The notes beneath the pieces are model-generated. The model did no database searches, was not told where the DNA came from, and worked only from the letters and a program-made list of their open reading frames with translations. Shown here in pieces: positions 2,964 through 54,960 of a DNA stretch of 64,000 bases (its first letter is position 1; each line of letters begins with the position of its first letter). The position numbers and the translations under genes were made by a program. This DNA is from Girardia tigrina (Eukaryota): contig MQRK01237436.1 of NCBI GenBank assembly GCA_001938485.1, positions 11,485-75,484 of the forward strand. Reading direction: 5' to 3'.

Positions 2964-3177
2964 TGTTAGAACACAAGAATAATTTATGAAGATTCATTTA
3001 TATCAAAATTCAAAATTGTATACAACACTCAATTATTAAAACAACACACTATAAATTAATTTAATATTTAATTAAATTAATTTCGAAAGACTTCAGAAAA
3101 TTCTAGAACCGATAGTTAATATTGATTTTAATAGATTATAGTATTAAGATAAATTATAATAAAGATAATTCCTCACA
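2964..3177 (-). repeat. 3' LTR of the Gypsy element
   Basis: Near-identical to 7353-7566 (about 7 substitutions counted by eye). Minus-strand PPT GAGGGGGGA at 3178-3186 abuts it. Confidence 0.97.
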
Positions 3178-3243
3178 TCCCCCCTCGTTTGAAAAGTTTT
3201 AACCATTCCACATTTCTTCTAATTCTTCTACCGTCTTCACTTT

Positions 3244-6200
3244 TCAGTTCGTAACTACGATTATGGACCTTATTAATAGTTTTAAACGGTCCTTCATATC
3301 GGTATGCTTGTTTGGATATGTTTGTTGCTTTACTAGAACTTCATCATCAACTTCACAGTTTCGGTTGCCTCTATGAGTGGTGCTATAAGTGACTTTATCT
3401 TGATTTATACGTGCTTTCTCAATGAGATCTTTTTTTTCTTGTTTATTACTTGCGTTACACCACTGCCGATTTATTTTGAATCCAAAAATTATTTCAGCTG
3501 GGATTATCTGTATTGCTTTATGAGTTGTGGCATTCAAACTAAACTCAATTTCCGGTAGTAAATCAACCCAATTTTTTGTCGTTCTTTAACTAATGTTGCA
3601 TTCATAAAGTCCCTTATGGTTCGGAATTGTCTTTCCACCATTCCGTTAGTGTTATGGTGGTAAGGACTTGAAAACTGTAATTTTATATTATACTTCTATG
3701 CCATTAATTTCATCAAGTTAGATTCAAAACTTTTATCACAATCGACGTGGATTATTCTTGGTGCACCAAATTTCAGTATCCAGTTGTTTACTGTTTCTTT
3801 TACTGTAGTTTCTTCGTCTTGTTTTATCACTGCATTGAGACTGATATATCGGCTAAATTGGTCTATGATTGCCAAGACATATCGTTTTCCGTATTTATTT
3901 GGTTTCATAGGGCCACAAAAGTCTACATATATCTCTTCAAAAGGATTCATACCTTGTTGTACCATGATCGTTTTTTTTGTTCTATCTGTAAATACCTTTT
4001 GTTTTTGACAAGGTTCGCAGGTACATATGACGTATCTTATATTCTCAGATAACCCATCCATATCATATTTATCTTTTATATAATCTGTAACCTTTTGTAT
4101 CCCTGCATGACATAATATGTTATGTATCTCTGTGATAAGTTCGATAGTTTTAGATTTTGGTATCCATATCTTTTTATCTTTTGTCACCACCACGTTGTCC
4201 TGTAAGTGAAACTGGTCTTGCTTACTTGATTTGATTTGTTTTTTTATACTATCTATTTCTCCATTATTATTCTGCCACCTCTGTCCATCTATCTCTAACT
4301 CTAGTGCTAATATTTTGGTCTTCATTTTTCCAGTTTTGGCATCAGGATGTTGTAGTTGGCAGTGATTACATGTTCCACATTTGTTCCGGGATAGACCATC
4401 TGCATTAGAATGAAGTTCTCCCTTGCGATATTCCAATTTCATATCCAGGCTACTTAAAAAATTTAACCAAGTCTGAAATTAGGATGTAATTGGTTTTTTT
4501 GTCATTAACATATACGTTATGGCCTTATGATCAGTGCGTAGTGTAAACTGTTTTCCATATAAGTAGTGTTTGAAATGTTGCGTAAATTAAAGTATTAATT
4601 TGCTTATAGTTCTTTTCTAGTGATACAATACCTTATCTCATGTTTATTCATGGCATGGGATCCGTATGCTATAACCTTTTCATTTCCATTATCATTCAAC
4701 TGGGAAAGGACTGCTCCAATGGCATTAAAACTCGCGTCTGTGTCCAAAATGAATGGTTTTGTAAAATCTGGGTATGTCAGTATCGGTGACTTACACAGTA
4801 ATTCTTTTAACTGATTGAAAGATTTTTCGTACTCATCGTTCCAGTATAACTTATTCTTATTGCTACCACACAGTGTTTTTAGATTTCGAGATATTTTCGA
4901 ATAATCCTTAATAAATTTCCGATAGTAATTGCATAGTCCTAAGAAACTTCTAAGTTTTTTTATACGATTTGGTCTTTCGAAGTTTTTTATGACCTCGACT
5001 TTCTCTGGGTCTGTCATCACTCCTTTTTCATTGATGATATGTCCTAAAAATTTAATTTCTTTTTGTATTAGTTTGAATTTTTCTGGTTTAACTTTTAGTC
5101 CAGCAGCTCTAATCTTTCCAAATATTTTATTTAACCTAGTTACGTGATCTGTCATTTTTTTTGAGAAAATCAGTATATCATCCAGGTAGACTAGGGCCTC
5201 CTTCCAATTCATATCTCCAACCACTACATTCATAAGTCTTTGGAACATTGCAGGGGCTGCTACTATTCCAATCGACATGCGATTAAAACAGTATTGACAT
5301 TTCTAGTTGAGAACGCAGTTTTTATCTTTGAACTTTCTTCCAATTGCACCTGGTAATACGCGTTCCCTAAATCTATCGTGCTAAAGTATTTTGAACCATT
5401 CAATGTGTCAATCATCTCTTCAATATTGGGCATGGGGTATGCTGGCCGTTCGGTAATTTTATTTAATTGTCTGAAATCTAGACACAATCTTATTTCCTCT
5501 TTTTCCTTCTTCCATACGCATACCATGGGTGTGTTCTATGGTGAACTACATTTTTTTATGATATTATTGTCTTCAAGGTTTTTTATGAAATCATCTATCT
5601 TCTTTTCCAGATTGGCCGGCTGTTTACATGGTTTCATTAATATAGGTTCCCCAAACGTTTTTATATTATGTTTTAACAAATTTGTGCACCCTATATCCCA
5701 TTTATTCGCCATAAATATCTCTTTATTTTGCTTTATTATTTCATATAGGGGTGATTTAATATCTATCTTCATTATTTCTATAGCATTTTTACATCTGTCA
5801 TTATTCGAATAAGTTTTTCCGAAGTTTGTACCTAGACTACATATTTCCTTACTATTACATAAATCAAAATTATTATTTTCATCAGATCGAGTATCCTTAT
5901 CTCTAGTCAGAAAAATTTTAAATGCGTTCATAAAATCCATACCACATATTATTTTAGTAAACAACTTTTCCGCAATATAAAACTTTACCCGCTTTTTTGT
6001 TCCCTCTATTTCTAAATCTAAAGATGTCAATCCCATAACTTTCAGTGGACTATCATTTGCACATACGATATTGTTAAAATCATTATATTCTATTTAAATA
6101 TTTAAGCTCGTTATTATACTTCTATCAATGACATTGATTCTGGGCCCTGTATCTAACAAACAATTGAAATATTTATCATTAATTTTCACAACTATACTTG

Positions 6201-6384
6201 GCCTACCATTCATTTTATCAAAAACTATCTTAAACTTGAGAGAGCGTGAGAAATGTTTCATATTATTATTTACATTTACAACTGATATAGTAGATATATT
6301 AAAATATTTAAAAGAATCATTTATACAATTACAATTCTTTTCATTACAAATAAAAGGTTCTAGAACTTTCTTACCTCTTAGCAT
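3244..6384 (-). pseudogene. pol: Gypsy pol (protease, RT, RNase H, integrase) broken by stops and frameshifts
   Basis: Protease LLDTG (6094-6384); RT RLCLDFRQLN and YLDD (4604-5526); RNase H LDTDAS; integrase HHCC (HNILCHAG...CEPC) and D,D core residues (3696-4442). Confidence 0.95.
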
Positions 6385-6435
6385 ATAGCTCCCATCACCT
6401 CTCGTCTTGACGGAGCATGCTCGTTTGGGGATTGT

Positions 6436-7353
6436 TCATATTCTGATGTCTCCACGGTTTTCACATCGTCTTCCATTTCGTTGAACTCCATCGCTGTTAC
6501 CGCTGAACCTTCTGTCGCGTTCACGGGGTTGTATTTGTCTTTTCTGAAAACATTGATAACTAAAATGTCCCCGTTTCTTACAACCGGAGCAAGTGATATT
6601 TGGGCATTCCTGTCTGAGGTTGCCATGTTCTTTACACGCATAACATTTCACTTGTCGATTGGGGCAATTTCTCATAATATGACCTTCTCTTTGGCACGAC
6701 CAGCAGATTAGGTTTTTTTGATATACTCCCTTTCCTGGAATTCGTCTCTGCATGCTGTTCCATCGTTCGTTCCTCACTGACGCTGGAAAATCTTGCTTCT
6801 GTTTAACAATTGTCGCATATGTGTGTCTTCTCTGAATCGTTGAAATGTCTTGGGCTTCTTCCTTCTCGATAATATCCATTTTATTGATAATATCTTTAAT
6901 TTGATCGACTTCCACTGCGTTTCTGAGAGCTAATTCCCTTTTAATAGCATTTTTTTGTACAATGTACCAAAAGTATGAATTAAGTTCTGTTTCATTCCAC
7001 TTGTGCTTCATCAACTTCTTAACCATTAATTCAATTTTATCAAAATATACCTTTGCACAATCCGATCCTTTTTCATAATTGTATAAGGATATAAAATCTT
7101 GTATTAGAGATGACGGTCTTGTGAACGCTTTTCTTAATCTTTCTTCAAATTCTGTTATCTTCGGGTCCACTGATTCGTATATTGCGATTAAATCTTTGGT
7201 GATGAATGCTTTGACCAAAATTCCTTGCAGGTGTTGGTCCGTGCCTGATACTTTAAAAAATCTCTTGCATTCTTTAATAAAATCTTCTAAATCTGAATCC
7301 GCTGCATACGTTGCTGGAACCAAATTTTGTAAATAATTAGGCGTGGTCGTCAT
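6436..7353 (-). CDS. gag: Gypsy Gag with three CCHC-type zinc knuckles
   Basis: Long open frame containing CWSCQREGHIMRNC, CYACKEHGNLRQEC (H replaced by N) and CSGCKKRGHFSYQC. The first ATG is at 7353-7351. Confidence 0.88.
   Translation of the reverse strand: MTTTPNYLQNLVPATYAADSDLEDFIKECKRFFKVSGTDQHLQGILVKAFITKDLIAIYESVDPKITEFEERLRKAFTRPSSLIQDFISLYNYEKGSDCAKVYFDKIELMVKKLMKHKWNETELNSYFWYIVQKNAIKRELALRNAVEVDQIKDIINKMDIIEKEEAQDISTIQRRHTYATIVKQKQDFPASVRNERWNSMQRRIPGKGVYQKNLICWSCQREGHIMRNCPNRQVKCYACKEHGNLRQECPNITCSGCKKRGHFSYQCFQKRQIQPRERDRRFSGNSDGVQRNGRRCENRGDIRI
7342..7352 (-). promoter_or_regulatory. Primer-binding site, tRNA-Arg-like with one mismatch
   Basis: TGACGACCACG directly follows the 5' LTR. 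TGGCGACCACG is complementary to the 3' end of typical animal tRNA-Arg(TCG). Confidence 0.65.
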
Positions 7354-7566
7354 GTTAGAACACAAGAATAATTTATGAAGATTTATTTATATCAAAATTC
7401 AAAATTGTGTACAACACTCAATTATTAAAAAAACACACTATAAATTAATTTAATATTTAATTAAATTAATTTTGAGAGACTTCTGAAAATTCTAGAACCG
7501 ATAGTTAATATTGATTTTAATAGATTATAGTATTAAGATAAATTATAATAAAGACAATTCCTCACA
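7353..7566 (-). repeat. 5' LTR of the Gypsy element
   Basis: Direct repeat of 2964-3177 with TG...CA ends. Confidence 0.97.
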
Positions 7567-8022
7567 TTAACAATTAACGCTCAATCATTATCTTTTAAAA
7601 ACACTAATTAGTTAAAATGTTTGAAAAATTTTAAATGTTCACTACTATAAAATTTGACGGCAAAGAAAATGGATAAAGAGTTACTCAAAGAACGTTGGAA
7701 AAGAGTTAATAAAGACAACTTTGATATAGAGAGTGTTCGAAAGAATTAGGATTCAACGAACTGAAGAGATTCAACAACTAAAAAAGAAAAAAAACAAGAG
7801 AAGAAGAAATTTCATCTATAAAATGGAACTCCAAAGTGCTTAATTTTAATAATATAAGGTTTTCTAAAATTATTTTTTTCTGTTATTTTCGTTCACAATC
7901 CGTTCTGATGTGCAAAAAATTACTAAATATTATTTATTCTAGAATATTAAAATTTAAATATTTTCAAATTTTAAAAAAATTATGACTAAAAGAGAAACAT
8001 TCAAACATGAAGATTTAGCTTT

Positions 8023-9095: not shown

Positions 9096-10382
9096 TTGGG
9101 TGTACAACTAATTAATTTCGTATTTTTTGTTAAAAAAACCATTCATTTAAGTATAAAAGTGAAAAATATTTTATTCAAAATATTGTCCATCGGAAGCGGC
9201 AACTTTTTCCCATCTGTCAGGCAATTTATGGATTCCATCCCAAAAAAACTTCAAATCTTTTGCGCCGAAAAAGTCATCAAGCCATTTTTTAATACCTTCA
9301 ACATTGGTGAACCGCATTCCTGAAAGGTGATTCTGCATCGACCGAAACAAGTGCTAATCAGAAGGAGCTATATCTGGGCTATAAGGCGGGTGAGGTAGAA
9401 TTTCCCATCCAGCATTTTCCAAATAATTTTTGACCGGTACTGCAACATGTGGCCGAGCATTGTCATGATGGAAAATCAATTTCTCGTGTCTGGTCGCCCA
9501 TTCTGGCTGTTTTTCGGCTATTGCTTGCTTCAAACGTATCAATTGTTGCCTGTATAGCTCTCCCGTGATCGTCTGGCCCGATTTTAACAGCTCATAGTCC
9601 AGCACACCATTCTGATCCCACCAAATACAGAGCATTACCTTCAAACCATGAATAATCGGCTTTGGTGTCGATTTGGCTGGTTGGCCTGGCTTCACATATG
9701 ATCTTTTACGCTTTGGGTTGTCGTAATGAATCCACTTTTCATCGCTAGTGACAATACGATGTAAAAACGGTTTCTTTTTGTGTCGATTAAGCAGCATTTC
9801 AGACATGCAAAATCGTCTCTCAACGTCTCTCGGCTTCAATTCGTGTGGCACCCAATTGTTTCTGAATGTATTCGGCTGCTTTTAAACGTTTAGAAATGGC
9901 TTGTTGAGTGACTTCCAATGTTTTTCCAAGTTCTTCTTGAGTTTGACATGGATCTTGATCGAGTAATGCCTCCANNNNNNNNNNNNNNNNNNNNNNNNNN
10001 NNNNNNNNNNNNNNNNNNNNNNNNNNNNNNNNNNNNNNNNNNNNNNNNNNNNNNNNNNNNNNNNNNNNNNNNNNNNNNNNNNNNNNNNNNNNNNNNNNNN
10101 NNNNNNNNNNNNNNNNNNNNNNNNNNNNNNNNNNNNNNNNNNNNNNNNNNNNNAGCAAACCTCCTCGCAAATGCTGTTTTGTTGGAACGTAATTTGACAT
10201 TTTGACTGTAATAAAAAAATTTGTGTGTTTACTAAAATTCAATAAAATTGACTATTGACTACATAAATAGATGTGAGGTTAGTAACAAATTCGAAATGAA
10301 GTAACAAATATGAAATGAGGTAACAAATACGAATATAAGGTTATTTCGTAACAAATACGAAATTAATTAGTTGTACACCTAA
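9096..10382 (-). mobile_element. Mariner DNA transposon (mauritiana/Mos1-like), frameshifted
   Basis: About 30-bp TIRs TT(G/A)GGTGTACAACTAATTAATTTCGTATTT with TA TSD. Motifs PHEL, DEKWIHYDNP, HDNARPH and HPPYSPDIAPSD; C-terminus ...DGQYFE*. Contains an N gap. Confidence 0.95.
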
Positions 10383-13732: not shown

Positions 13733-15004
13733 TACTAAGCGAATAATTTTTTCGCTAAATTGTATTTTTTAGATAGATTTTTTAGAAATTCCTACTAGAT
13801 AATAATTAGTATATTATTTTCTTCATATAACTATTACAGTTAAATTACCATAATATACTTTTTCAAAAAGCCGATCAATAAAAATTATTAAGACTTTGTA
13901 TTACAGTATACATTTACAAAACGAATATTTTTTTCGCCACAATATCAAAAGTCAACGAGAAATGTTTATATTCCTATGTTTTTATTTTGTTATATAAACC
14001 ACCTTTGCTCTGAAGAACTTTGCAGAGTCTCTTACGAATTTGTGTGTATAATTCCTGGAGAATTTCTCGTTTAGAATCGCACAATTTTAATATTACCGTA
14101 TTTATTTTCAAAATCAAATCCTTATTTTTCCTAAATTGTGGGCCATCATGAACTTTATTTGAGATCATCCGCCAGACGTCCTCTACAATATTTAGATCTG
14201 GACTTTTTGATGGCCAATCTAATACACGGATATTGGATAAATTCATAAAGCTTTTAACTGATTTTGCTTTATGTACTGAGCAGTTATCTTCTTGAAATGT
14301 AAAATTCATGACACTTTTCAAACCATGACCTTATATGGCTTACTCGATTTTGCATATGCTTTTTTGTGAGTACTATTTCCCTCCTTGCTTTTTTGTATTT
14401 ATAACCTTCTTTTCTCAAATATTTCTGTACCGTTCTCACATTTGCATTTATCTCACATTCTTTCATTATTTTCGAACTAGTGACTCTTTCTCCCTTATTG
14501 AGTGAAAACGATATTTGACGTTTTATTCTAAATTGAAGCTTTTTTGTTATTTTAGGTTTCGGTCCTCGTTCTTTTTAAGGTTTTTAATGTGTAAGAACAT
14601 AAACTCTTAGCAGAATTCAAAGATATGTTCATTTTTTGACCAATTTCTTTATATGTCAAGCCTTTAATCCTAAGCTCGATTGCCTCATCCNNNNNNNNNN
14701 NNNNNNNNNNNNNNNNNNNNNNNNNNNNNNNNNNNNNNNNNNNNNNNNNNNNNNNNNNNNNNNNNNNNNNNNNNNNNNNNNNNNNNNNNNNNNNNNNNNN
14801 NNNNNNNNNNNNNNNNNNNNNNNNNNNNNNNNNNNNNNNNNNNNNNNNNNNNNNNNNNNNNNNNNNNNNNNNNNNNNNNNNNNNNNNNNNNATATTATTT
14901 ATTTATATTTCAATAGGTAATTATCACCTAATTATATGAATCGTATTAATAAGTCCAATGTAAATTGAAAAATACAATTTAGCGAAAAAATTATTCGCTT
15001 AGTA
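13733..15004 (-). mobile_element. Tc1-like DNA transposon with internal deletion
   Basis: About 37-bp TIRs TACTAAGCGAATAATTTTTTCGCTAAATTGTATTTTT with TA flanks. FQEDNCSVH and WPSKSPDLNIVEDVW are present; the segment with the first catalytic Asp is missing. Confidence 0.9.
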
Positions 15005-22989: not shown

Positions 22990-24283
22990 GAGAATTGTTC
23001 ATTTTGAACAAATAAATATAAACGATAGCACATCGTGTAACTTAACTGATTCTACAATCGTTTGCAGTGTTTAAGTTGTGTTTTTTATGCTACACATTTG
23101 AATTTATATGTTAAATATTGAAATTTTCATTAATGACTTATTTTTTGAAATTTTAGATAAATTAAATGTCAAGAGTATTTAGTGAATTTGAGCGTGGAAT
23201 TATTGTTGCGCTTAAAAATGCAGGAAGTACATGGAATCAAATAAAGGTCAAACCATTTACAAGATATAATAGAAATATTTCAAAACGTGGAATGCAAAAA
23301 ATATGGGCGAAGTATTTAAAAATAGGAAAAGTGAAAGATCAGCCACGAGGAGGCAGACGTCATAAACTAAGCGCCAGATCAGAAAGAGTGATTAAGCACA
23401 TAAGTCGTTTACACAATGATATTTCCACGTTAAATATTACAAGGATATTTAATTCTTCTTCCTCAATAGCCATAAGTAAGTCGACAGTCGAAAGGATTTT
23501 ACAGAAATATGGAATACGGGCATTCGAAGCTGTAAAGAAATCTTTCCTTACCGCTAAACAGAGACAAAGAAGAATGCAGTGGGCTTAATTATATCAAAAT
23601 TTGGATAAATAAACTTGGTATTCTGTTATATTTAGCGATGAATGCATTTTCCAATGTTATAATCATCGTGGTAGACGTTGGATCAGACGAACTAGAAATG
23701 AAATATTCAAACTCAGAAACATCCATGAAACCATGAGCCACGGAGTCAAAGTTCATGCCTGGGGGTGCTTTTCGGCAAACGGGGTAGGTCTTCTTAGAAA
23801 AGTAGAAGGTTCAATGAATGCTCAAATGTACCAGAAAACTATAATACATGACATTATTGGAAAGTGCTTGGTATTTCCAAAACAACAATTAATTTTTCAG
23901 CAAGATCTTGGACCACCACACCGTGCACTGTCGACATTTAATTTCTTAAAAAAGAAGGAAGTCGACCTTTTACCATGGGCAGGTAATTCACCAGACGTAA
24001 ATCATATCGAAAATGTATGGGAACGTTTAAAAAAGGAAATTACAGACGATAAGGTGCACATCGTCAGAACAGCTGTGGGTGGCTCTTCAAAAAATATTGT
24101 ACGAACTATCAAAAGACTATTGTAAAAGTCTTGTTGAATCTATGCCTAGGCAATTAAAAATGATAAAGGACATGAAAGGACATTCAACTAAGTATTGAAA
24201 GTTCACGTAATAAATGTTTTGTTAAAAATTTGATCTTTTTTCTCAAAAAATATGGTGGGAGAACAGACTTATGAATCATACTA
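22990..24283 (+). mobile_element. Tc1-like transposon with stop-interrupted transposase (23166 to about 24197)
   Basis: HTH N-terminus with GRRHKLS, then FSDE, VHAWGCFS, FQQD and WAGNSPDVNHIENVW. The left TIR was not found, so the boundaries are approximate. Confidence 0.9.
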
Positions 24284-42100: not shown

Positions 42101-43744
42101 ATTTATCATTTGTCACAAAAACCAATTAATAATTTTTATTTATTTATTTATATTATTTTTTCAAATTGTATTAAAAGGAACCCTAACATTTAATTAAAAT
42201 ATAATTTTTTTCACGTCAAAAAATATAAGAAAAACAGATAAATCGGAAGAAAAAGATAAACAAATGATTAAGTAATAAAAAAACTAACCTCAAAAAATTC
42301 TAATAATCCATTTGTGATAAATGTATAATATTTTGTATAATCATTCTACATTTTTTTCATATTTCACCAATCAGAATTGAGAATTAATATTTAAACAAGA
42401 CAACCTCATAATTTTCGTCAAACAGGCAAAATTGAATAATTGTTTGATTTTTTTTCCAAAAAGTATAAAAGTATAAATTTTTAAAAGAAGAAAAATAGAT
42501 TGTTTTTAATTATTTAGAAATTAATATATATTTTATTATATCAATAAAATAATATATTGCTTTTTCGACAATAGTAATAAAAAAATAATAAAATAAATAA
42601 ATAAAACATTTGTGATTGGGAAAAATAAAACCTTTAAATTAATTAATATTTAATTTACATTGTTTTTATTTTTGTGAAAGATCAAGTCAAATTGGAGGAT
42701 CTGGAAGTTGTTTGGTTAAAATAAAAGCCGATATTCAAATTAAAAATAATTTGAAAACGATTTCCAAATATTTGTTTGTTTTGATTGTATACTCACAGTT
42801 GATATATTTTTATAACTTGAGTAAAGGAATATTTTAACTTATATTCTTACTCAAAGTTTTCTTTTTCATATGCATTTATGTTTATTTTGCATTGTAAGAG
42901 GATGTACGGATAATAGTCCTAAACTTCTTTTAACTGTGTACAGTATTTAGGTGAAAGAAGATTTAGATTTTGTTGGCACATATATAACGTCATTAGACTC
43001 GACCAGAAATAATTACTTTATAATATATTTTTATATTTTTAGTATTTAAATAAATTGCTTTATTTGATTATTTCATCAGAACTTATCTAGAAACGTTTAA
43101 TTATAAAGCGTTATAAAGTTTTTGCTTTTGAAGAAAATTAGCAGCAAAGAAATTTTCGCACAACTTCTGGATGTTTAGAAGATACCATTTGAAACTAGAT
43201 TCGGGATTTTGAAATTGGACGCACTAGTATTATTGATTTGTTTAATGGGAAGAGAAATTGAATACATTTTCCTATTCCATCAACTTTATAAAATAATCAA
43301 ATATAAAGAGATGAGGAGTATTTATTAATCAGAACAATAAACATCCGGGTGTTATAGTGAATTGTTAAATCATTCGGTTATAAAAAAATAGATTGAGAAT
43401 CGGATTTTCCAAAACAACAATAATCTCTACCTACGTAAATATCTTATATATTATACTTTATACTTCATCCTCTGACGAGTCTTAATCAGAGGTGAATTAG
43501 TTGACCTCATCGTTGAGTTGCTCATGTCTGTATGAGTATGAATTGAGCAACTCATTTTGGACTACTGATAGACTTTGTCTACTTATGCTTCTATTAGGAA
43601 CTCTTCTATATTCTAACCTTTGTCCATATTTTTGTGGTGTCTATTGGTTTTAATTGTATTCGCTTCAGTTTTGTCCGAGGATTCCTAGACATTTTTCATC
43701 TCTATGACATGTCCATTGTGCCTAAAAATATTTGACAATTAATA

Positions 43745-44951
43745 TTAGGTGTACAAGTATGAAATGCGGATTAAATTTTGAAAAGAAATACGTTAAAAAC
43801 AAAAGAACGATAAAAAAAACTTTATTCAAAATATGCTCCATTACTAATGATACATTTGTCNNNNNNNNNNNNNNNNNNNNNNNNNNNNNNNNNNNNNNNN
43901 NNNNNNNNNNNNNNNNNNNNNNNNNNNNNNNNNNNNNNNNNNNNNNNNNNNNNNNNNNNNNNNNNNNNNNNNNNNNNNNNNNNNNNNNNNNNNNNNNNNN
44001 NNNNNNNNNNNNNNNNNNNNNNNNNNNNNNNNNNNNNNNNNNNNNNNNNNNNNNNNNNNNNNNNNNNNNNNNNNNNNNNNNNNNNNNNNNNNNNNNNNNN
44101 NNNNNNNNNNNNNNNNNNNNNNNNNNNNNNNNNNNNNNNNNNNNNNNNNNNNNNNNNNNNNNNNNNNNNNNNNNNNNNNNNNNNNNNNNNNNNNNNNNNN
44201 NNNNNNNNNNNNNNNNNNNNNNNNNNNNNNNNNNNNNNNNNNNNNNNNNNNNNNNNNNNNNNNNNNNNNNNNNNNNNNNNNNNNNNNNNNNNNNNNNNNN
44301 NNNNNNNNNNNNNNNNNNNNNNNNNNNNNNNNNNNNNNNNNNNNNNNNNNNNNNNNNNNNNNNNNNNNNNNNNNNNNNNNNNNNNNNNNNNNNNNNNNNN
44401 NNNNNNNNNNNNNNNNNNNNNNNNNNNNNNNNNNNNNNNNNNNNNNNNNNNNNNNNNNNNNNNNNNNNNNNNNNNNNNNNNNNNNNNNNNNNNNNNNNNN
44501 NNNNNNNNNNNNNNNNNNNNNNNNNNNNNNNNNNNNNNNNNNNNNNNNNNNNNNNNNNNNNNNNNNNNNNNNNNNNNNNNNNNNNNNNNNNNNNNNNNNN
44601 NNNNNNNNNNNNNNNNNNNNNNNNNNNNNNNNNNNNNNNNNNNNNNNNNNNNNNNNNNNNNNNNNNNNNNNNNNNNNNNNNNNNNNNNNNNNNNNNNNNN
44701 NNNNNNNNNNNNNNNNNNNNNNNNNNNNNNNNNNNNNNNNNNNNNNNNNNNNNNNNNNNNNNNNNNNNNNNNNNNNNNNNNNNNNNNNNNNNNNNNNNNN
44801 NNNNNNNNNNNNNNNNNNTCAATTTATGAGTTACGTATGAGACACTACATAATTACTCAATATTATGACATCATTGCCTAACCATTGACCTACTTTTTGC
44901 ATTGTGCACAATCCGTTTTCTGAAATCCGCATTTCATGCTTGTACACCTAA
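43745..44951 (-). mobile_element. Mariner transposon (mauritiana-like TIRs) with interior mostly N gap
   Basis: 28-bp TIRs TTAGGTGTACAAG(T/C)ATGAAATGCGGATT and TA TSD; C-terminal DKCIISNGAYFE* lies next to the gap. Confidence 0.92.
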
Positions 44952-45047
44952 TATTAAGCATGCAATATGTTGCGGTCGAAAAATAATAGAATAATACATC
45001 ACACATGCAATATAAAAAGGAAAAAGAAAACAGAGAGTATTAATACA

Positions 45048-45690
45048 TTTATTAAATCGAAAAATAAATCCATGGATCGCTTTGGGTTTATCGTGTCAAA
45101 GGGGGGCAGCATTGTGTCGCAGCTAAAAAACGATAAATGAAGAAAATTAGACAAGAGAATCGAAAACTTACTCGATAGGCAGGACCAAATGAGATGATAA
45201 GCTTTTGGGACCAAACTGTAGAACCCCGAAAGCCTTGGGAGGAGGTGGCCGCTCTAAAAGATAAAATAATTAATTAGAAAAGACCCAAATTGAATTAAGG
45301 TACCTCATGGGCGACCCGTTGTCTTTTAGGGGTCATCCGATACCCCACGTGTAGCTTATAATGAGACCGGTCCCTGGGTGTGGTCCGCGAAGCCATGACA
45401 TCTTCCTGAAGAGGGTTATACCCCTGCAAAGAAATACAAATTAAATAAAGCCAGACAAAGGCTAATTAATAAACAAAGACAGTAAATAAAACTTACGATG
45501 ATTCAGGCCATGAATAAAGCACGGTGTCACACGATGAACAGTCATCGGTGACAAAGAGGCCTTGTGATTAACGGTCATTGTCAGACACACGGCCTAGCAA
45601 CACCAGCCCTGGCGAATCCTAGTTCGAGATTGGTGGCATCAACCAACCAGATACAGCCACGGAAAATATGTCGCAACAAACGCAACATTG
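45048..45690 (-). other. Predicted four-exon spliced antisense transcript (small ORF or lncRNA) within the LTR-like region
   Basis: Introns 45496-45424, 45303-45254 and 45171-45123 with canonical GT...AG. Spliced ORF from ATG 45396 to TAA 45088 (69 aa); AATAAA at 45053-45048. Confidence 0.6.
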
Positions 45691-47527
45691 AGTGTTATAA
45701 ATATAACACTCACTCGGACCAGTTTCACAACTTGCTATCACAATTTTACAGCAAAATTTTTAACACAATTTTACAGTACCTTTTTCACACTATTATTTTC
45801 ACTCTTGACGATTCAACTTGCAAAATCCGACGAGGAACCCAGCACGAAGAGAACGACGAATAAGAACAACCACAAAACCCGAAACGATATACGGCTTCGA
45901 AATAGTATTCGACGCCAGGACGATACATACGAAAAGGACCGATCGACCGAGGCATTCAACGGCTTGTGAAACTTTCGCCGATTGTAAATTTTATTTTTTT
46001 TATTATGTTGAGTTTTTGTGGATTTTAGTTTGTCTTTTATCACCAATAAACGTATTAAACGCTACTATTATTATTTATTTTTTTTGTATTTGATTTTCTC
46101 CATTTATTTATTATTAGCACTACTAATTGAATTTGTTTAGAGAATTTGCTTAATGATTAAGTTTTATAGTAAATACTTGTTTACCGTTTCCGAGTAAGGT
46201 AACCCGTCGTCGCCGCCTTCTGATATACCCCGAGAGGATTTGCGCTCGAATGCGCGATGGAAAAATTTCGGCGGCCACGCCGACCCGATAATTGTTGACA
46301 TTGCATCGGTGCCCCTCGAAGTGTTCCTTCGAGAGAGTTGCGCCAGGTTGAACGTCGAAAAAACAGAAGCGAGAACGTGCCCGCGCAAGTCGCATGATTG
46401 TTTTTAAGATATTTATTGAATATAGTTTTCCGTAATATTAGTTTATTATTAATTCATTTTAGTGTTTTGTTCTACTTGATTTTTTGTGACTCATAAGCAG
46501 TTAAGTATATTGAATTTCGCGGAGCGCTAAACTAAATGAAATGGGTGAATATTTATCAAAAGTATAGCGAGAGTGCTGATTAAGAGTTTTTATAGACAAT
46601 TCGGTATTTTATTAAGAATAAAGTCTAATGAATATTAAGAAATTGATGGAAGGATTGTATTATCTATGAAATTGTATATATATATATATTGAATTGAATT
46701 TTACGATCAAATTATTATTGTGGGAATCTTATAAACGACTTGCTCCGACAAAATTTCTTAAGCGCATTTTGGGTAAGGGAAATATTTATATTTCGAGCAG
46801 ATTTAATTTTACGAAATTTAGCGATTAGGAGTAATGTTCAAGAGCAATAATTTAATCAAGTTTTATGAAATAACAATTCTGTAACTTAGTTTTTATGAAG
46901 TGAAATAATTTAGTCCGTCAGGAACGTTTTGATCGAAATTACAGTTATTGAGATATGAGTCCATGAAAACTAAACAATTTAAATCGGTAAGAGTAGTTAG
47001 AAAATAAAATAATAAAATCGAGTGATGAAATTTACAGAATTTATTTAGTGCTGTTGTTGATGGTCCACTTGAAGGCACCTTTTAAGAATTAAGACGGTTA
47101 ACGATTATATTTGTGGTTTAGCAGATTTTCCTAGTTAAGGCAAGGACAATTTTAATATAAGCCCATAATTAAATTAGGGATAAAACCTCGAGAGACAAGC
47201 GAACGTAATCTATTTGATAGAATTTGTTAGTACAGATAAATGCGAGTTGCTCATCGTAGAAATTAAGGTATCAATTTTTAGCTAGAAAGGAAAATCATCC
47301 CCGAACGACACGCCGCTAGGTGGGGGGCCCATAGCCCATCCCGTCTTTATTCGAACCCGCAGGCCCTTCAGACTCGGCACTGCTAGGCAGATGTCGGGCG
47401 AGAAGAGGCGTCCGACCCTCTAACGTAAAAATGATATATAGACATTCGTAGTTGAGAGTAGATTCAGACTGGGTTGTGACTGACCCTTAATAGTCACTGG
47501 GGGCTCTGAGCACGCAAAATTGTTACA
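45113..47527 (+). mobile_element. Probable large (~2.4 kb) 3' LTR of a giant LTR retrotransposon
   Basis: PPT-like AAAGGGGGG (45098-45106) shortly before TGTG; TATAAA at 45697 with Inr-like CAGTTT at about 45720; AATAAA at about 46045; CpG-rich downstream part; ends ...TGTTACA. No second copy in the window. Confidence 0.55.
45689..45712. promoter_or_regulatory. Palindromic TATA element, candidate bidirectional core promoter
   Basis: TGAGTGTTATA-AA-TATAACACTCA, a perfect 11-bp inverted repeat. Confidence 0.5.
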
Positions 47528-49989
47528 AACAAATGGGTCGTGACAAATAGCACTGATTCCAATCCTCTTCAGGGGAATCCCCAGACTTGTCATAATACTG
47601 ATACTTCTCTTTTGTCATGTCCCGGTACATCAGATCTAGGAAGCATGGTTCATTACAGGTTTATTCAGTATTGCTCGTTGACAGACGTTTGTCAAGGACA
47701 TGAAGTAATCCAGGTTCTAAGTATTGATGTAAGCCATGTGTTCTTGAGCGTCGTGAAAATATAGTGTTCCGCCTTGGTTCCATGATTTATAGGTCTACCG
47801 AGTCTTGAGACGGAACATATGTCGACACAACATTTATATGCATTTGACAATCTAGATTTTGTAATATCTCTTCCGTTCAAAAGTACAAGACAGCATTATG
47901 CAGGTACTTTTTAAACTCGACACTATAAGAACAGTCCGTCAAGACGTGCACCAGTCTCCTTATTATGTTTATATCTTCTGCATTGCCTCACTATTTTACA
48001 AATACGATTTCAATGGTTGACGGGCCAATGGTTGAGAAAGTACCATTTCCTATCATTCGATCCCCTTCCGTGAACCGCATTCTGAAAAATAACCGTGGAT
48101 ATTAGACTTCATGTGAATTTCCCGTCACTGCTCTCTTTAGGCGCCGAAGAATTCTTGTAATGATTACTTCATTTTTAATAGTAATAAATGTTCAAAATCA
48201 TATTTTAATAAGTTTCTACAATTTATAAGCTTTTATGGACGAAAAATTATGAATTAGTCCTAAAAAAAAATTATTTGTTAGTCCTCAAAATCAACCATAA
48301 TATGAAATATAAAAAATATTTCATCAAATTTGAAGCTACCACACTTTGTATTGCTTTTACTGATTGTTCTTTAACCAAATATTTTACTAAAATCACGAAA
48401 TTTCTGCTCAACAGTCTCAAGAAATTTTTTTTCTCAAAATAGAAATGATAAAAGATAGTATAATGCTTCGTACACATTTTTATCAACTAAAAAGAAAGAA
48501 GAATTAAAAGAAAAAAATAAACTAAATGCTAATTTTTAAAATACAGTAGAAAAGGAAAAATAAATAAATTTAAACCGTATATCAAGGCAATACTTGAGTA
48601 TTTAGGTTTAGGTTTGCTTTGCTTTAGACTTAGGGTTAGGATTAGAATTAAAAACAAATTTTAGAATCAAAAATAATATTTTATTATATATTAGTATGAT
48701 GATTAGACTTACATTCTAAAGATATTAAAAAAATAAACTGAAAAATATGAAATTAACAAATTAATGAAGTTTTATTAGAAACTTTATTTGAAATTTCGTC
48801 AGAAAATATGATAATTGGCACTTGAGAAATTCTCACAGCTCCTTCTTAATGACTTCACTTCGAATAATTTAAATAACAAACAATGGCTTCATTGGTAAAA
48901 GAGGCTTTTAAAGACTATCTGAAAATTCAAGTAAATTAAAGTTATATTCAAATAAAAGAGGCTCTACAATTGTTGCTTGAAGAAAACGAATTTTCTAAAG
49001 AAAAAAAATTTAAAATTTTTTTTTGAAATTGCATAAAATTGAACATAAAAATTATGAGAAAAAAATAATATTTGAGTGACAATTGCGTTTATTGATTTTA
49101 GAAAAATAAATAAATATTTTTACATTTTTAAAATATTATTTATATAATATATTTTAATTATTATTTTATTTATTTATATAAATATTTATTATATTAATAT
49201 AAATTATATTTTGCAATATCTATAAATGGAAATATTTAAATATTTAATCATTTAACTTAAAACTTATTTTCATTTTAATGGAAGTAAAAATAAATTTTGA
49301 CAAAATTAATTAATCAATATTTTTTTTGCTTTTTTGGAAATTAGAATTTTTCAAGAAACGGAATTACAAAATTTTTATATATCAAAGAACCATTAACTTT
49401 TCTTGTTCAAAAGAGGAAATTATCCGTAAATATTTTTGTCTGTCTTCATTGTACTCAAAATGTTTCTCTAATCTTAGTTTTAAGCAGAATTTACAATTAT
49501 TTAATTCAACGTAATCCAAAAATCAAAACGCAAAAGCTATTTGAAGATTTTATCTTATTCATCTAACCTTTAAGCCAGTCAAAATCTAAAGTGGGTGTCT
49601 CACAATGGCTCATTTCTTTCTAGTTTTTATAAAATATTCTACTATTACCGCCGAACAACGCTATGTTATTTTCTTTTGTCCAGTCGCTTAAAAAACTACT
49701 AAGAGGAAGGTGCTTAAATATCGCTAAAATGATTAAGCAGAAATTAATGATTTCCAAAACTTTATAGTTTTTAGAACACACATAAAACATTCAATTATTT
49801 ATTGTAAAATAATCTATTTTTATTTATGCACTGATTTTTTATTTTTATTATTGTCGTTATCGTTGATTGACTTGCCATAAGTTTATGACCACCTGTAAAT
49901 TTTAAGAAAGTAATGCTTCCATATCATATAATTGAGAAATACAACTTGATATAATGGAATATTAGTATTTGGTAGCGTATGTCAACCAT

Positions 49990-51124: not shown

Positions 51125-52032
51125 CTTGCGTACTTCGACAGTGCCAATACTGGTTTTCTAAATTTCGTTCTGAAAAATTCCATCTGAAAGATGCACCACG
51201 CTCCGGTCGACCAGTTGAAGTTGATGGCGACAAAATAACAGCACTGATCAAATCTAATCCACGTATGACGACAAGAGAAGTTGCAGAGACTCTGGAAATA
51301 TCAAAATCAAGTGTTGGAAGTCATTTAAAAAAACTTGGATTCGTCAGTAAACTTGATATGTGGTAACCACATGAACTGAAAGAATTTCATTTGGTGAAAC
51401 GTATAGACATTTTTGATTCCCTTTTGAAACGAGTACAAAGTGATCCATTTTTGAACCGCTTGATTACGAGTGACGAAAAATAGATTGTTTACAACAATGT
51501 GGAACGCCGACGATCATGGACAAAACGTGGTGAGCCTCCCAAAACAATCCCAAAAGCAGAAATTCACCAAAAGAAGATTATACTTTTCATCTGATGGGAT
51601 TTTAAAGGAATTGTGTTTTTTGAACTCCTTCCGAGGAATGAAACAATCAATTCAGACAGATATTGTGGTCAGCTGGAGAAATTGGCTCATTCAATTCAAC
51701 AGGAACGTGCTGAATTGGCAAATCGAAAAGGAGTTGTAATTCAGCATGATAACGCTAGACCGCATACAAGTTTGACCACTCGCCAGAAACTCTTATCACT
51801 GGGTTGGGAGGTTTTTCCACACCCACCGGATTCTCCAGACTTGGCCCCATCGGATTTTCACTTATTTAGATCACTGAAGAATTCCTTAAACAGAAAAACA
51901 TTCACCAGTGATAATGACATCAAATCGTTCCTCGACGGCTTTTTTGCTGACAAAGGCAAAGGTTTTTATGAATCAGGAATAATGAAGCTACCGGAAAGGT
52001 GGAAGAAAGTGATTGAAAATAATGGACAGTAT
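51125..52032 (+). mobile_element. Mariner transposon (cecropia/Hsmar1-like), 5' truncated with stops; 3' end in gap
   Basis: WFSKFR...PRSGRP, W*PHEL, TSDEK, HDNARPH, HPPDSPDLAPSDFHLFRSL and ERWKKVIENNGQY. Confidence 0.92.
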
Positions 52033-54199: not shown

Positions 54200-54960
54200 A
54201 AATAATTTTTATTGTTCGAGATTAAAAATAATGGGTACAATAAAAATTATTTAAATAATTTGATAAAAAAATACTATTGACTCAATTCGCGAAAAATCTA
54301 ATAATAAAAATGAAAACATTATAAATAATGATAGTAGTAATGTAATAAAAAACAAATAATTTAAAATTACCAATTTTGACATGTGTGATTTGAAGAAAGG
54401 CTAAATGAAAAAGGTTCCTTCGGGTTTTAATTTGAGGCCGATCTTTATAACTAATAAACTATCGAGATATTTCTCAAATAAATCAAAAACTCCATCGGGT
54501 GTCCAAGCTAATCTAGTATATCAATTTAAATGTCACAAGTGTGAATCCTTGTACATTGGAGAAACAAATCGTCATCTCCGCACTAGAATAGCTGAACACA
54601 CCCAATTGAGTAGGAATAGCTGGATTCTAGATCACATTAAAAAATGCAGAAATAGAGATAAAGTTAACTATGAAACTGAATTTACATTTTTGAAGAAAAA
54701 TTTGGAAACATATCACGAGAGGATAGTCACTGAGGCATTATTAATAAAGCATTTAAAACCATGCTTAAATGTTCAAAGTGAATTATCCAATCATATTAAA
54801 ATCTTTTAATATTAATTAAAAAAAAATTTATTGCATAATAGTCAATGTGCCATGTAAATGACTTGTAATTTGAAATTTAATTCACAACTGATGATGCCGT
54901 AATGGCAAAACATGTTTTGACAAATAAAAAACTTTCAAAATAGCGTTTGTTCTTCATTTC
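54200..54960 (+). mobile_element. Penelope-like 3' fragment with intact GIY-YIG frame (54405-54809)
   Basis: NNGY RT tail, LVYQFKCHKCESLYIGETNRHL and EALLIKHLKPCLNVQ. Confidence 0.9.
54885..54919 (+). ncRNA. Minimal hammerhead ribozyme with G12>A change (probably inactive)
   Basis: CAA CTGATGA T GCC GTAAT GGC AAAA CATG TT TTG. Confidence 0.7.

Follow-up and report, generated by a model that had tools for sequence, protein, structure and literature searches.

Why retrotransposons keep antisense RNAs that carry several introns and code for no protein has been a question since TART and HeT-A. A locus of Girardia tigrina raises it again. In the 64-kb stretch of DNA analysed here (64,000 nucleotides, referred to as the window), a sequence-only reading had described three consecutive short introns on the minus strand, spliced into an open frame of 69 codons and placed antisense within the U3 of a putative giant LTR. 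The locus asks what this unit belongs to, whether its introns are maintained and used, whether it codes for a protein, and what splicing on this strand might do for the element.

The antisense unit lies in a solo LTR

The introns are found in a solo LTR of 2,578 bp (44968-47545, plus strand) with TG...CA ends. All 30 left-edge matches in the genome place its left edge at 44968 (one of them begins TC), and 26 right-edge matches place its right edge at 47545. Dispersed copies with TG...CA ends sit between unrelated flanks, and 4-bp target-site duplications were seen by eye in all four copies of which both ends were compared; in the window, the four letters at 44964-44967 recur identically at 47546-47549. 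The region is a repeat in the 1.43-Gb genome, with 857 first-look candidates, of which 40 were scored. The 30 loci taken from the scored candidates form the copy set of family A, the window LTR's own family. The unit is LTR-borne rather than a single-copy host gene. Tandem or nested partial copies of the same family occur at loci L007, L015, L019, L021 and L028.

The strand of the element follows from its internal flanks. A PBS, which we take to be of the tRNA-Pro type, stands directly to the right of 47545 in 4 of the 26 right-edge matches, and a purine-ending internal flank is common to 2 of the 30 left-edge matches. With the PBS to the right and the purine-ending sequence to the left, the plus strand is the sense strand, as the internal domains of another copy also indicate, and the introns are antisense to the element, in its U3, as first proposed. 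The LTR 3' end (47290-47545, the end of R and U5) is the portion that is 70-88% identical to sister families.

The boundaries drawn in the sequence-only reading need correction. It had taken the purine run at 45099-45112 for the PPT at the LTR edge; this run is an internal stretch of the LTR, and an edge or PPT at 45099-45113 is ruled out by the copies, 30 of 30 of which start at 44968, 145 nt beyond the run. The last antisense exon, supposed to cross the edge and the PPT, lies wholly inside the LTR. The final exon and poly(A) signal had been thought to occur only in the 3' LTR, but solo and 5' LTRs carry both. Since exon 4 and AATAAA are inside the LTR, every LTR copy holds the whole antisense unit.

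Architecture of the unit

On the minus strand, the unit starts with exon 1 (45680-45497), whose putative 5' end is placed from the position of the TATA box described below. It continues with intron 1 (45496-45424, 73 nt), exon 2 (45423-45304, 120 nt), intron 2 (45303-45254, 50 nt, with a weak donor), exon 3 (45253-45172, 82 nt), intron 3 (45171-45123, 49 nt) and the last exon (45122-45030), which has a putative 3' end. The three introns have the positions, sizes and GT...AG ends originally given, and the alternation of AT-rich introns (22-27% GC) with GC-rich exons (55% in exon 2, 52% in exon 3) is as described. In their ends and pyrimidine tract they conform to U2-type spliceosomal introns. 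Removal of all three leaves the 69-codon frame open in the window copy (45396-45088). Downstream of it, the poly(A) signal AATAAA is present at 45053-45048, followed by TGTA and U/GU-rich sequence; it is kept in all 28 copies with data, 2 of the 30 being without that stretch.

How often such introns arise by chance was gauged with a crude intron rule applied to 1000 dinucleotide shuffles and 1000 shuffles keeping the AT/GC blocks. The rule recovers two of the three introns. At least two intron-like matches appeared in 2 of the 1000 dinucleotide shuffles and in 52 of the 1000 block-keeping ones, so the motif scan alone is modest evidence. The latter figure favours a reading in which the intron-like blocks are kept for A-rich elements acting on the sense strand or at the DNA level, or are a captured host relic, and splicing is incidental; palindromes and hairpins of the LTR could likewise act as DNA or on the sense RNA. 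We consider this reading very improbable, on grounds given by the copies and the contigs below.

Conservation of the splice sites among copies and families

The main evidence for the introns is splice-site conservation rather than the motif scan. In the 30 family A copies, 180 of 180 splice dinucleotides are kept, so that no copy departs from GT or AG at any of the 12 positions. Judged by the per-base invariant share, the chance of all 12 being invariant is about 5e-4, a value that is not a strict P value, the copies being related.

Sister LTRs were found by a PBS search (194 matches). They share only the last 255 nt with the window LTR, or nothing by blastn. Each of the 7 loci viewed, out of 11 scanned, has one to four short AT-rich GT-AG segments on the antisense strand in the 5' part of its LTR; of the remaining four scanned loci, two are of the window's own family type and two have gaps or no clear cluster. 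The loose intron rules also match sense strands and flanks, and their matches are leads only. For families B, C and D, 20 loci each were taken from 41-45 matches, after which the locus of the query itself and two copies identical to others were removed.

Compared to the reference copy, which for family A is the window copy, splice letters in family A differ at 0 of 348 positions versus 1090 of 10423 in exons (0.105). The corresponding counts are 5 of 272 versus 0.142 in family B (18 copies, 4 introns), 16 of 222 versus 0.191 in family C (20 copies, 3 introns), where in most of the differing cases the GT or AG is intact but displaced by 1-2 nt, and 0 of 76 versus 0.061 in family D (20 copies, 1 intron). 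Because the copies are related, counts within a family are not independent events. Intron interiors also vary less than exons (0.054 versus 0.105 in A, 0.085 versus 0.142 in B, 0.136 versus 0.191 in C and 0.032 versus 0.061 in D). Base composition may contribute to this, as the AT-rich tail is also fairly invariant: of the A/T sites, 51 of 86 do not vary in the tail, compared with 90 of 129 in the introns and 38 of 109 in exons 2-4.

Relatedness of the units extends to the exons. Both B and C have a homologue of the exon between introns 1 and 2, with an ungapped identity of 47-54% (shuffle maximum 0.41) and neighbouring introns that differ in length from those of the window; intron 1 has a homologous intron in both families. 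This exon measures 120 nt in all 20 C copies and all but one of the 30 A copies, and 115-152 nt in B.

A further 19 copies of family A, 70-93% identical and some of them partial or duplicates of earlier loci, form a diverged set in which most changes stay within the splice consensus. Position +4 of the intron 3 donor takes all four bases while the GT stays, and the intron 1 acceptor stays YAG. The exceptions are a subfamily in which the AG of the otherwise conserved intron 2 has become AA, the loss of a donor and the deletion of an acceptor at intron 1, in one case each, and chimeric copies whose 5' end is a different one beyond exon 3. In the chimeric LTRs (L072, L073, L074, L114 and L121), exon 1 to intron 2 is shared and the 5' end of U3 past 45230 is unrelated; one chimeric variant has an extra T-rich intron-like stretch.

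Reverse-strand introns are shared by at least four LTR families, and their splice sites are very probably under selection, as judged from the copies. Intron number and length change between families while GT and AG stay. This pattern, together with variation that follows the splice consensus, argues against splicing being incidental.

The same conservation bears on the possibility that the antisense RNA acts in trans as a brake, pairing with the U3 end of the genomic RNA or feeding antisense piRNAs, and so limits copy number. Complementarity between the antisense RNA and the 3' end of the sense genomic RNA is complete. In planarians, most transposon piRNAs are antisense, and Burro is repressed by PIWI (PMC8532177), while the HeT-A antisense RNA is under rasiRNA control and has been discussed as a rasiRNA source (PMC2615633). 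However, pairing needs no introns, yet conservation sits in the splice signals, and a self-silencing part would have to persist in four amplifying families. We regard a trans brake as unlikely.

Spliced joints in assembled contigs

The RNA evidence consists of unstranded assembled contigs of six out of eleven listed runs (X1, X2, X3, X4, X6 and X7), of which X1 was taken as RNA by guess. With the window LTR as reference, one X1 contig skips intron 1 exactly and another nearly so, and one contig skips intron 3 exactly; the intron 1 and intron 3 joints are the only 2 of the 13 listed joints with splice-type ends. The ends of seven other X1 joints are not of the splice type, and we interpret these joints as divergent stretches. 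When a second copy served as reference, intron 3 was again skipped with GT..AG ends by one X1 contig (1 of the 5 joints listed). The intron joints are represented by one contig each, have a shorter side of 24-30 letters at a likeness cut-off of 82-85, and are marked 'between: not known'. No intron joint was found in the contigs of X2, X3, X4, X6 and X7, several of which cross the introns unspliced, and skipping of intron 2 was seen in the contigs of none of the six runs. Splicing at all three introns, as the sequence-only reading supposed, is therefore likely for introns 1 and 3 in X1, and was not seen for intron 2 or in the other five runs.

An intron-less genomic form could mimic such joints. 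None was found at intron 1, where GT comes after the end motif of exon 1 in 113 matches and G with another letter in 0, or at intron 3, where a single match lacks the AG and does not correspond to the spliced form. Since the intron ends are exact and an intron-less genomic form was not found, the joined forms are likely derived from RNA, on thin evidence from one sample.

That most contigs are unspliced and five of the six runs are without a joint would suit incidental splicing; however, unspliced cover is expected because sense genomic RNA runs through the 3' LTR. Depth steps at 45718 and 47266 were left aside, as the depth sums contigs of several families.

Coding potential of the spliced frame

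The sequence-only reading had allowed for a micropeptide. In this reading the 69-codon frame, or its homologue, would encode a fast-evolving antisense accessory protein like HBZ or the plant aORFs. Several features speak for it. The length of exon 2 is nearly constant in A and C. The frame has one stop across the 30 A copies, and none of 75 shared variants is nonsense versus about 2.6 expected; an ATG followed by at least 65 codons is found in 21 of 30 copies. In family C, none of the 20 copies of the 120-nt exon, which has no indel, closes the homologous frame with a stop, and this openness is left unexplained by a non-coding reading.

Selection on the protein was, however, not detected. The pN/pS of the frame is 1.10 over exons 2-4 of the 30 family A copies, and 21 of the 75 shared variants are synonymous versus 30% expected (p=0.67). 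Tests for a synonymous excess in any frame on either strand reach p<0.05 in 0 of 30 cases in family A; in B and C, 2 of 30 tests reach p=0.04, both in frames that are closed in most copies. Start and length are not kept either: the ATG is kept in 24 of 30 copies and lost in 6, the window stop is kept in 16 of 30, and the ATG with exactly 69 codons occurs in 7 of 30. All 18 family B copies have a stop in the homologous frame, and the diverged A copies share a one-base shift in exon 3, which is one base longer in these subfamilies. In B and C, the exons in which the longest ORF begins and ends vary among copies, and the starts in C differ. The frame further requires removal of intron 2, whose retention would leave 33 codons, and the 40-codon peptide of exon 2 has no Pfam match and no usable Atlas match. 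A micropeptide under selection is accordingly not upheld, and we judge a micropeptide of any kind improbable.

Other frames were considered and rejected. The +1 frame, which looks conserved by eye, and the +2 frame, with a pairwise pN/pS of 0.46-0.56 over exons 2-4, both have stops in most copies and, with each variant counted once, no synonymous excess. Selenocysteine or read-through at a shared TGA was dropped for the same reason. The sense ORFs at 45552-45863 and 45598-45969 have no Pfam match, and the reverse frames give no signal.

An RNA without a shared ORF could also be a by-product. The promoter would fire backward, and the introns and early poly(A) signal would route the RNA to export and NMD, avoiding dsRNA and piRNAs. 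The poly(A) signal inside the LTR in every copy with data fits this, as does the small part of the summed depth that spliced contigs make up, although contig depth is no measure of RNA level. NMD has been proposed for the HeT-A and TART antisense RNAs (PMC2615633). On the other hand, the 21 of 30 A frames with at least 65 codons run from the ATG into the last exon if all introns are spliced, and a frame that reaches the last exon gives a layout that escapes NMD. Disposal by splicing is, in our estimate, quite unlikely.

Taken as a whole, the locus is very probably a spliced non-coding antisense unit under selection for splicing.

RNA structure

In 9 of 11 segments, conservation of the predicted fold is stronger on the antisense than on the sense strand, with few two-sided changes. 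Exons 2-4 of family A have fold z values near or above 0 and are not more stable than shuffles. Searches against Rfam gave one match in 6 LTR-bearing loci, one of which is a close copy of the window LTR, at E 0.47 and below the gathering score. As to structured RNA, only single hairpins stand in these comparisons of predicted folds, such as the one in exon 1 (45552-45526, minus strand), which has a longer stem in family B. In the last antisense exon of L157, L155 and L163, a 10-bp hairpin shows two-sided changes by eye between family D and L163, and the last-exon fold of family D has a z of about -3.

A putative divergent promoter

Next to exon 1, a 22-bp palindrome (45690-45711) holds a TATA box of the sense strand (45696-45703). 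The box is followed by a conserved spacer of about 25 nt and then by sequence that differs between subfamilies, and a 22-mer overlapping the palindrome has 191 exact matches in the genome. In six sister LTRs, a TATA-like box was recognised by eye immediately ahead of the first antisense donor, at a distance of 417-872 nt from the start of the LTR. The palindrome is likely the shared core of a divergent promoter. From the TATA box and conserved spacer, the sense start would fall near 45727, giving a U3 of about 760 bp (44968-45726) and a long R. The antisense unit would then fill U3 and point away from the TATA box.

A weak poly(A)-like loose end lies near 47419 in the X1 contigs. If this end and the proposed start hold, R (45727-47435) is about 1.7 kb, unusually long and highly variable between subfamilies. 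The A/T skew flips near 45970, and the stretches at 45980-46190 and 46400-46500 are T-rich on the sense strand and intron-like by eye; a strict intron scan found no sense-strand intron in either.

The carrier is a Burro-like Gypsy element

The internal sequence identifies the carrier as a large Burro-like, env-bearing Ty3/Gypsy (Metaviridae) element, as read from its domains. To the left of one 3' LTR copy, itself without a 5' LTR, are about 13.3 kb of same-strand, stop-broken ORF pieces, in agreement with the large element first suspected. Pfam domains follow the order PR-RT-RH-IN on separate pieces. A 969-aa piece combines a Monjiviricetes_fusion match (E 1e-58) with an aspartyl protease, the fusion (env) domain standing ahead of the protease. 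A dUTPase-like match between PR and RT and a ubiquitin/SUMO-like match upstream of env have E values of 0.002 and 4e-4, below the Pfam cut-off. Another copy has a capsid and zinc-knuckle match about 7 kb behind its PBS, across an assembly gap. At L061:5810-7942, protease and RNase H matches lie merely 2.5-4.6 kb behind the PBS, unlike the layout of the other copy; this is probably a nested or deleted element.

Burro and GYPSM1 are giant Gypsy elements of dugesiid planarians (PMC6431247). Like the carrier, they have a fusion (env) domain of mononegavirus type that precedes the protease in one frame; they also have a ubiquitin-like stretch and a dUTPase between protease and RT (PMC6431247), to which the two matches below the cut-off would correspond in place. 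Their cargo of BCL2, BIR, ankyrin and MATH domains was found in none of the 17 scanned pieces of the carrier, which are broken and cover the element in part. A giant element of the Burro type would exceed 30 kb in total and encode one polyprotein of about 5,000 aa; the carrier is seen over about 13.3 kb of ORF pieces. The available portion of the Burro/GYPSM1 account is silent on LTR anatomy and antisense introns (PMC6431247).

Comparison with known antisense RNAs

TART antisense RNAs have several short introns, mostly of 53-104 nt, and their function is unresolved (PMC1636488). Like the LTR unit, they are multi-intron and without a long ORF, with some introns in terminal direct repeats, and, as in the LTR families, intron size and spacing are similar across subfamilies with very diverse UTRs (PMC1636488). 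However, TART is a non-LTR telomeric element whose antisense RNA extends over kilobases (PMC1636488), whereas the LTR unit is below 0.7 kb, has its own poly(A) signal, sits within U3 of an LTR element whose copies are dispersed, and occurs in solo LTRs too. The HeT-A antisense RNA is also non-coding and multi-intron, and starts about 190 nt upstream of the sense start at a two-way promoter, an arrangement for which the start of the LTR unit is a prediction; unlike the LTR unit, HeT-A is a non-LTR element, its splicing is variable and partly cryptic, and its RNA reads into the neighbouring element (PMC2615633). The role of antisense splicing in HeT-A and TART has been called elusive (PMC2615633). 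The LTR unit works like these RNAs but is not a member of their group, since it is carried by an element with LTRs.

Retroviral LTRs are two-way promoters for antisense RNAs such as HTLV-1 HBZ, HIV-1 ASP/Ast and those of the MLV 5' LTR, and the HBZ RNA is spliced (PMC10186651); BLV AS1/AS2 belong to the same group. Transcription of these RNAs continues beyond the LTR into the provirus or the host DNA, and HBZ and ASP code for proteins (PMC10186651), whereas here everything lies within one LTR. The plant aORFs of Grande, RIRE2 and Retand and the micropia antisense RNA resemble the LTR unit in having their own promoter and occurring in most copies of a Gypsy family. In contrast, the aORFs occupy the internal region and encode conserved proteins, with introns not described in the available text (PMC7264820), while the LTR unit is in U3 and very probably non-coding.

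Our literature search found no multi-intron antisense unit within an LTR, and the available portions of PMC8532177, PMC11410931 and PMC4558846 make no mention of one; the original Burro description (Grohme 2018) may treat LTR transcripts. Multi-intron non-coding antisense RNAs are already known from TART and HeT-A, and what is new relative to these is a compact multi-intron antisense unit self-contained in an LTR.

A possible role in cis

Reverse transcription of spliced RNA removes sense-strand introns from a retroelement but copies antisense introns intact. The antisense strand is therefore the only one on which an LTR can keep promoter-proximal introns. Under the mechanism we propose, a divergent promoter would serve both the sense and the antisense RNA, and a short non-coding RNA would start beside the sense TATA box and run away from it. 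Recruitment of the spliceosome or U1 next to the promoter would raise sense initiation or mark the locus as gene-like. The antisense RNA would thus be kept for the act of splicing, not for its sequence or a protein.

Splicing-dependent activation in cis has precedents in spliced enhancer lncRNAs (PMC8803168) and in Blustr (PMC6884709). As in the LTR unit, selection in these falls on splice signals over exon sequence, and AT-rich introns alternate with GC-rich exons; their effect on a neighbouring promoter in cis is for the LTR unit a proposal only, and they are single-copy mammalian host loci while the LTR unit is mobile and multi-copy (PMC8803168, PMC6884709). By this analogy, it is quite possible that antisense splicing aids the sense promoter in cis, although the precedents are mammalian. 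The wider proposal that Burro-type elements keep introns by placing them antisense in U3, and splice a divergent ncRNA to switch on or shield their own promoter, is a more doubtful one. If it is true, each LTR, with hundreds of solo LTRs among them, would act as a portable enhancer built on a spliced lncRNA, and TART and HeT-A, whose antisense introns lack an explanation, would have reached the same solution by convergence.

This compact unit, complete within each LTR, is found in at least four LTR families and more than 100 copies with natural splice-site variants. With so many variant copies and an RNAi-amenable host, activation in cis, feeding of piRNAs and disposal by NMD would be separable from expression data. 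In genome annotation, a solo LTR of this kind can be mistaken for a small host gene with several exons.

Other features of the window

The rest of the window appears to be transposon debris. Among the 27 window ORFs scanned against Pfam, no host gene was found, only transposon domains. A small Gypsy element on the minus strand (2964-7567) has 215-bp LTRs that are 97% identical, and its zinc knuckle, RT, RNase H and integrase domains are spread over different ORF pieces. Pieces of Mariner/Tc1 transposase are present at 9357-9881, 13977-14330, 23166-24122 and 51595-52032. A GIY-YIG endonuclease match (E 2e-5) at 54405-54806 is, at a guess, of Penelope-like origin. Around a 958-base gap, 34-bp inverted repeats (97%) about 1.2 kb apart (43739-43772 and 44924-44957) are likely the ends of a DNA transposon, 10 bp to the left of the solo LTR.
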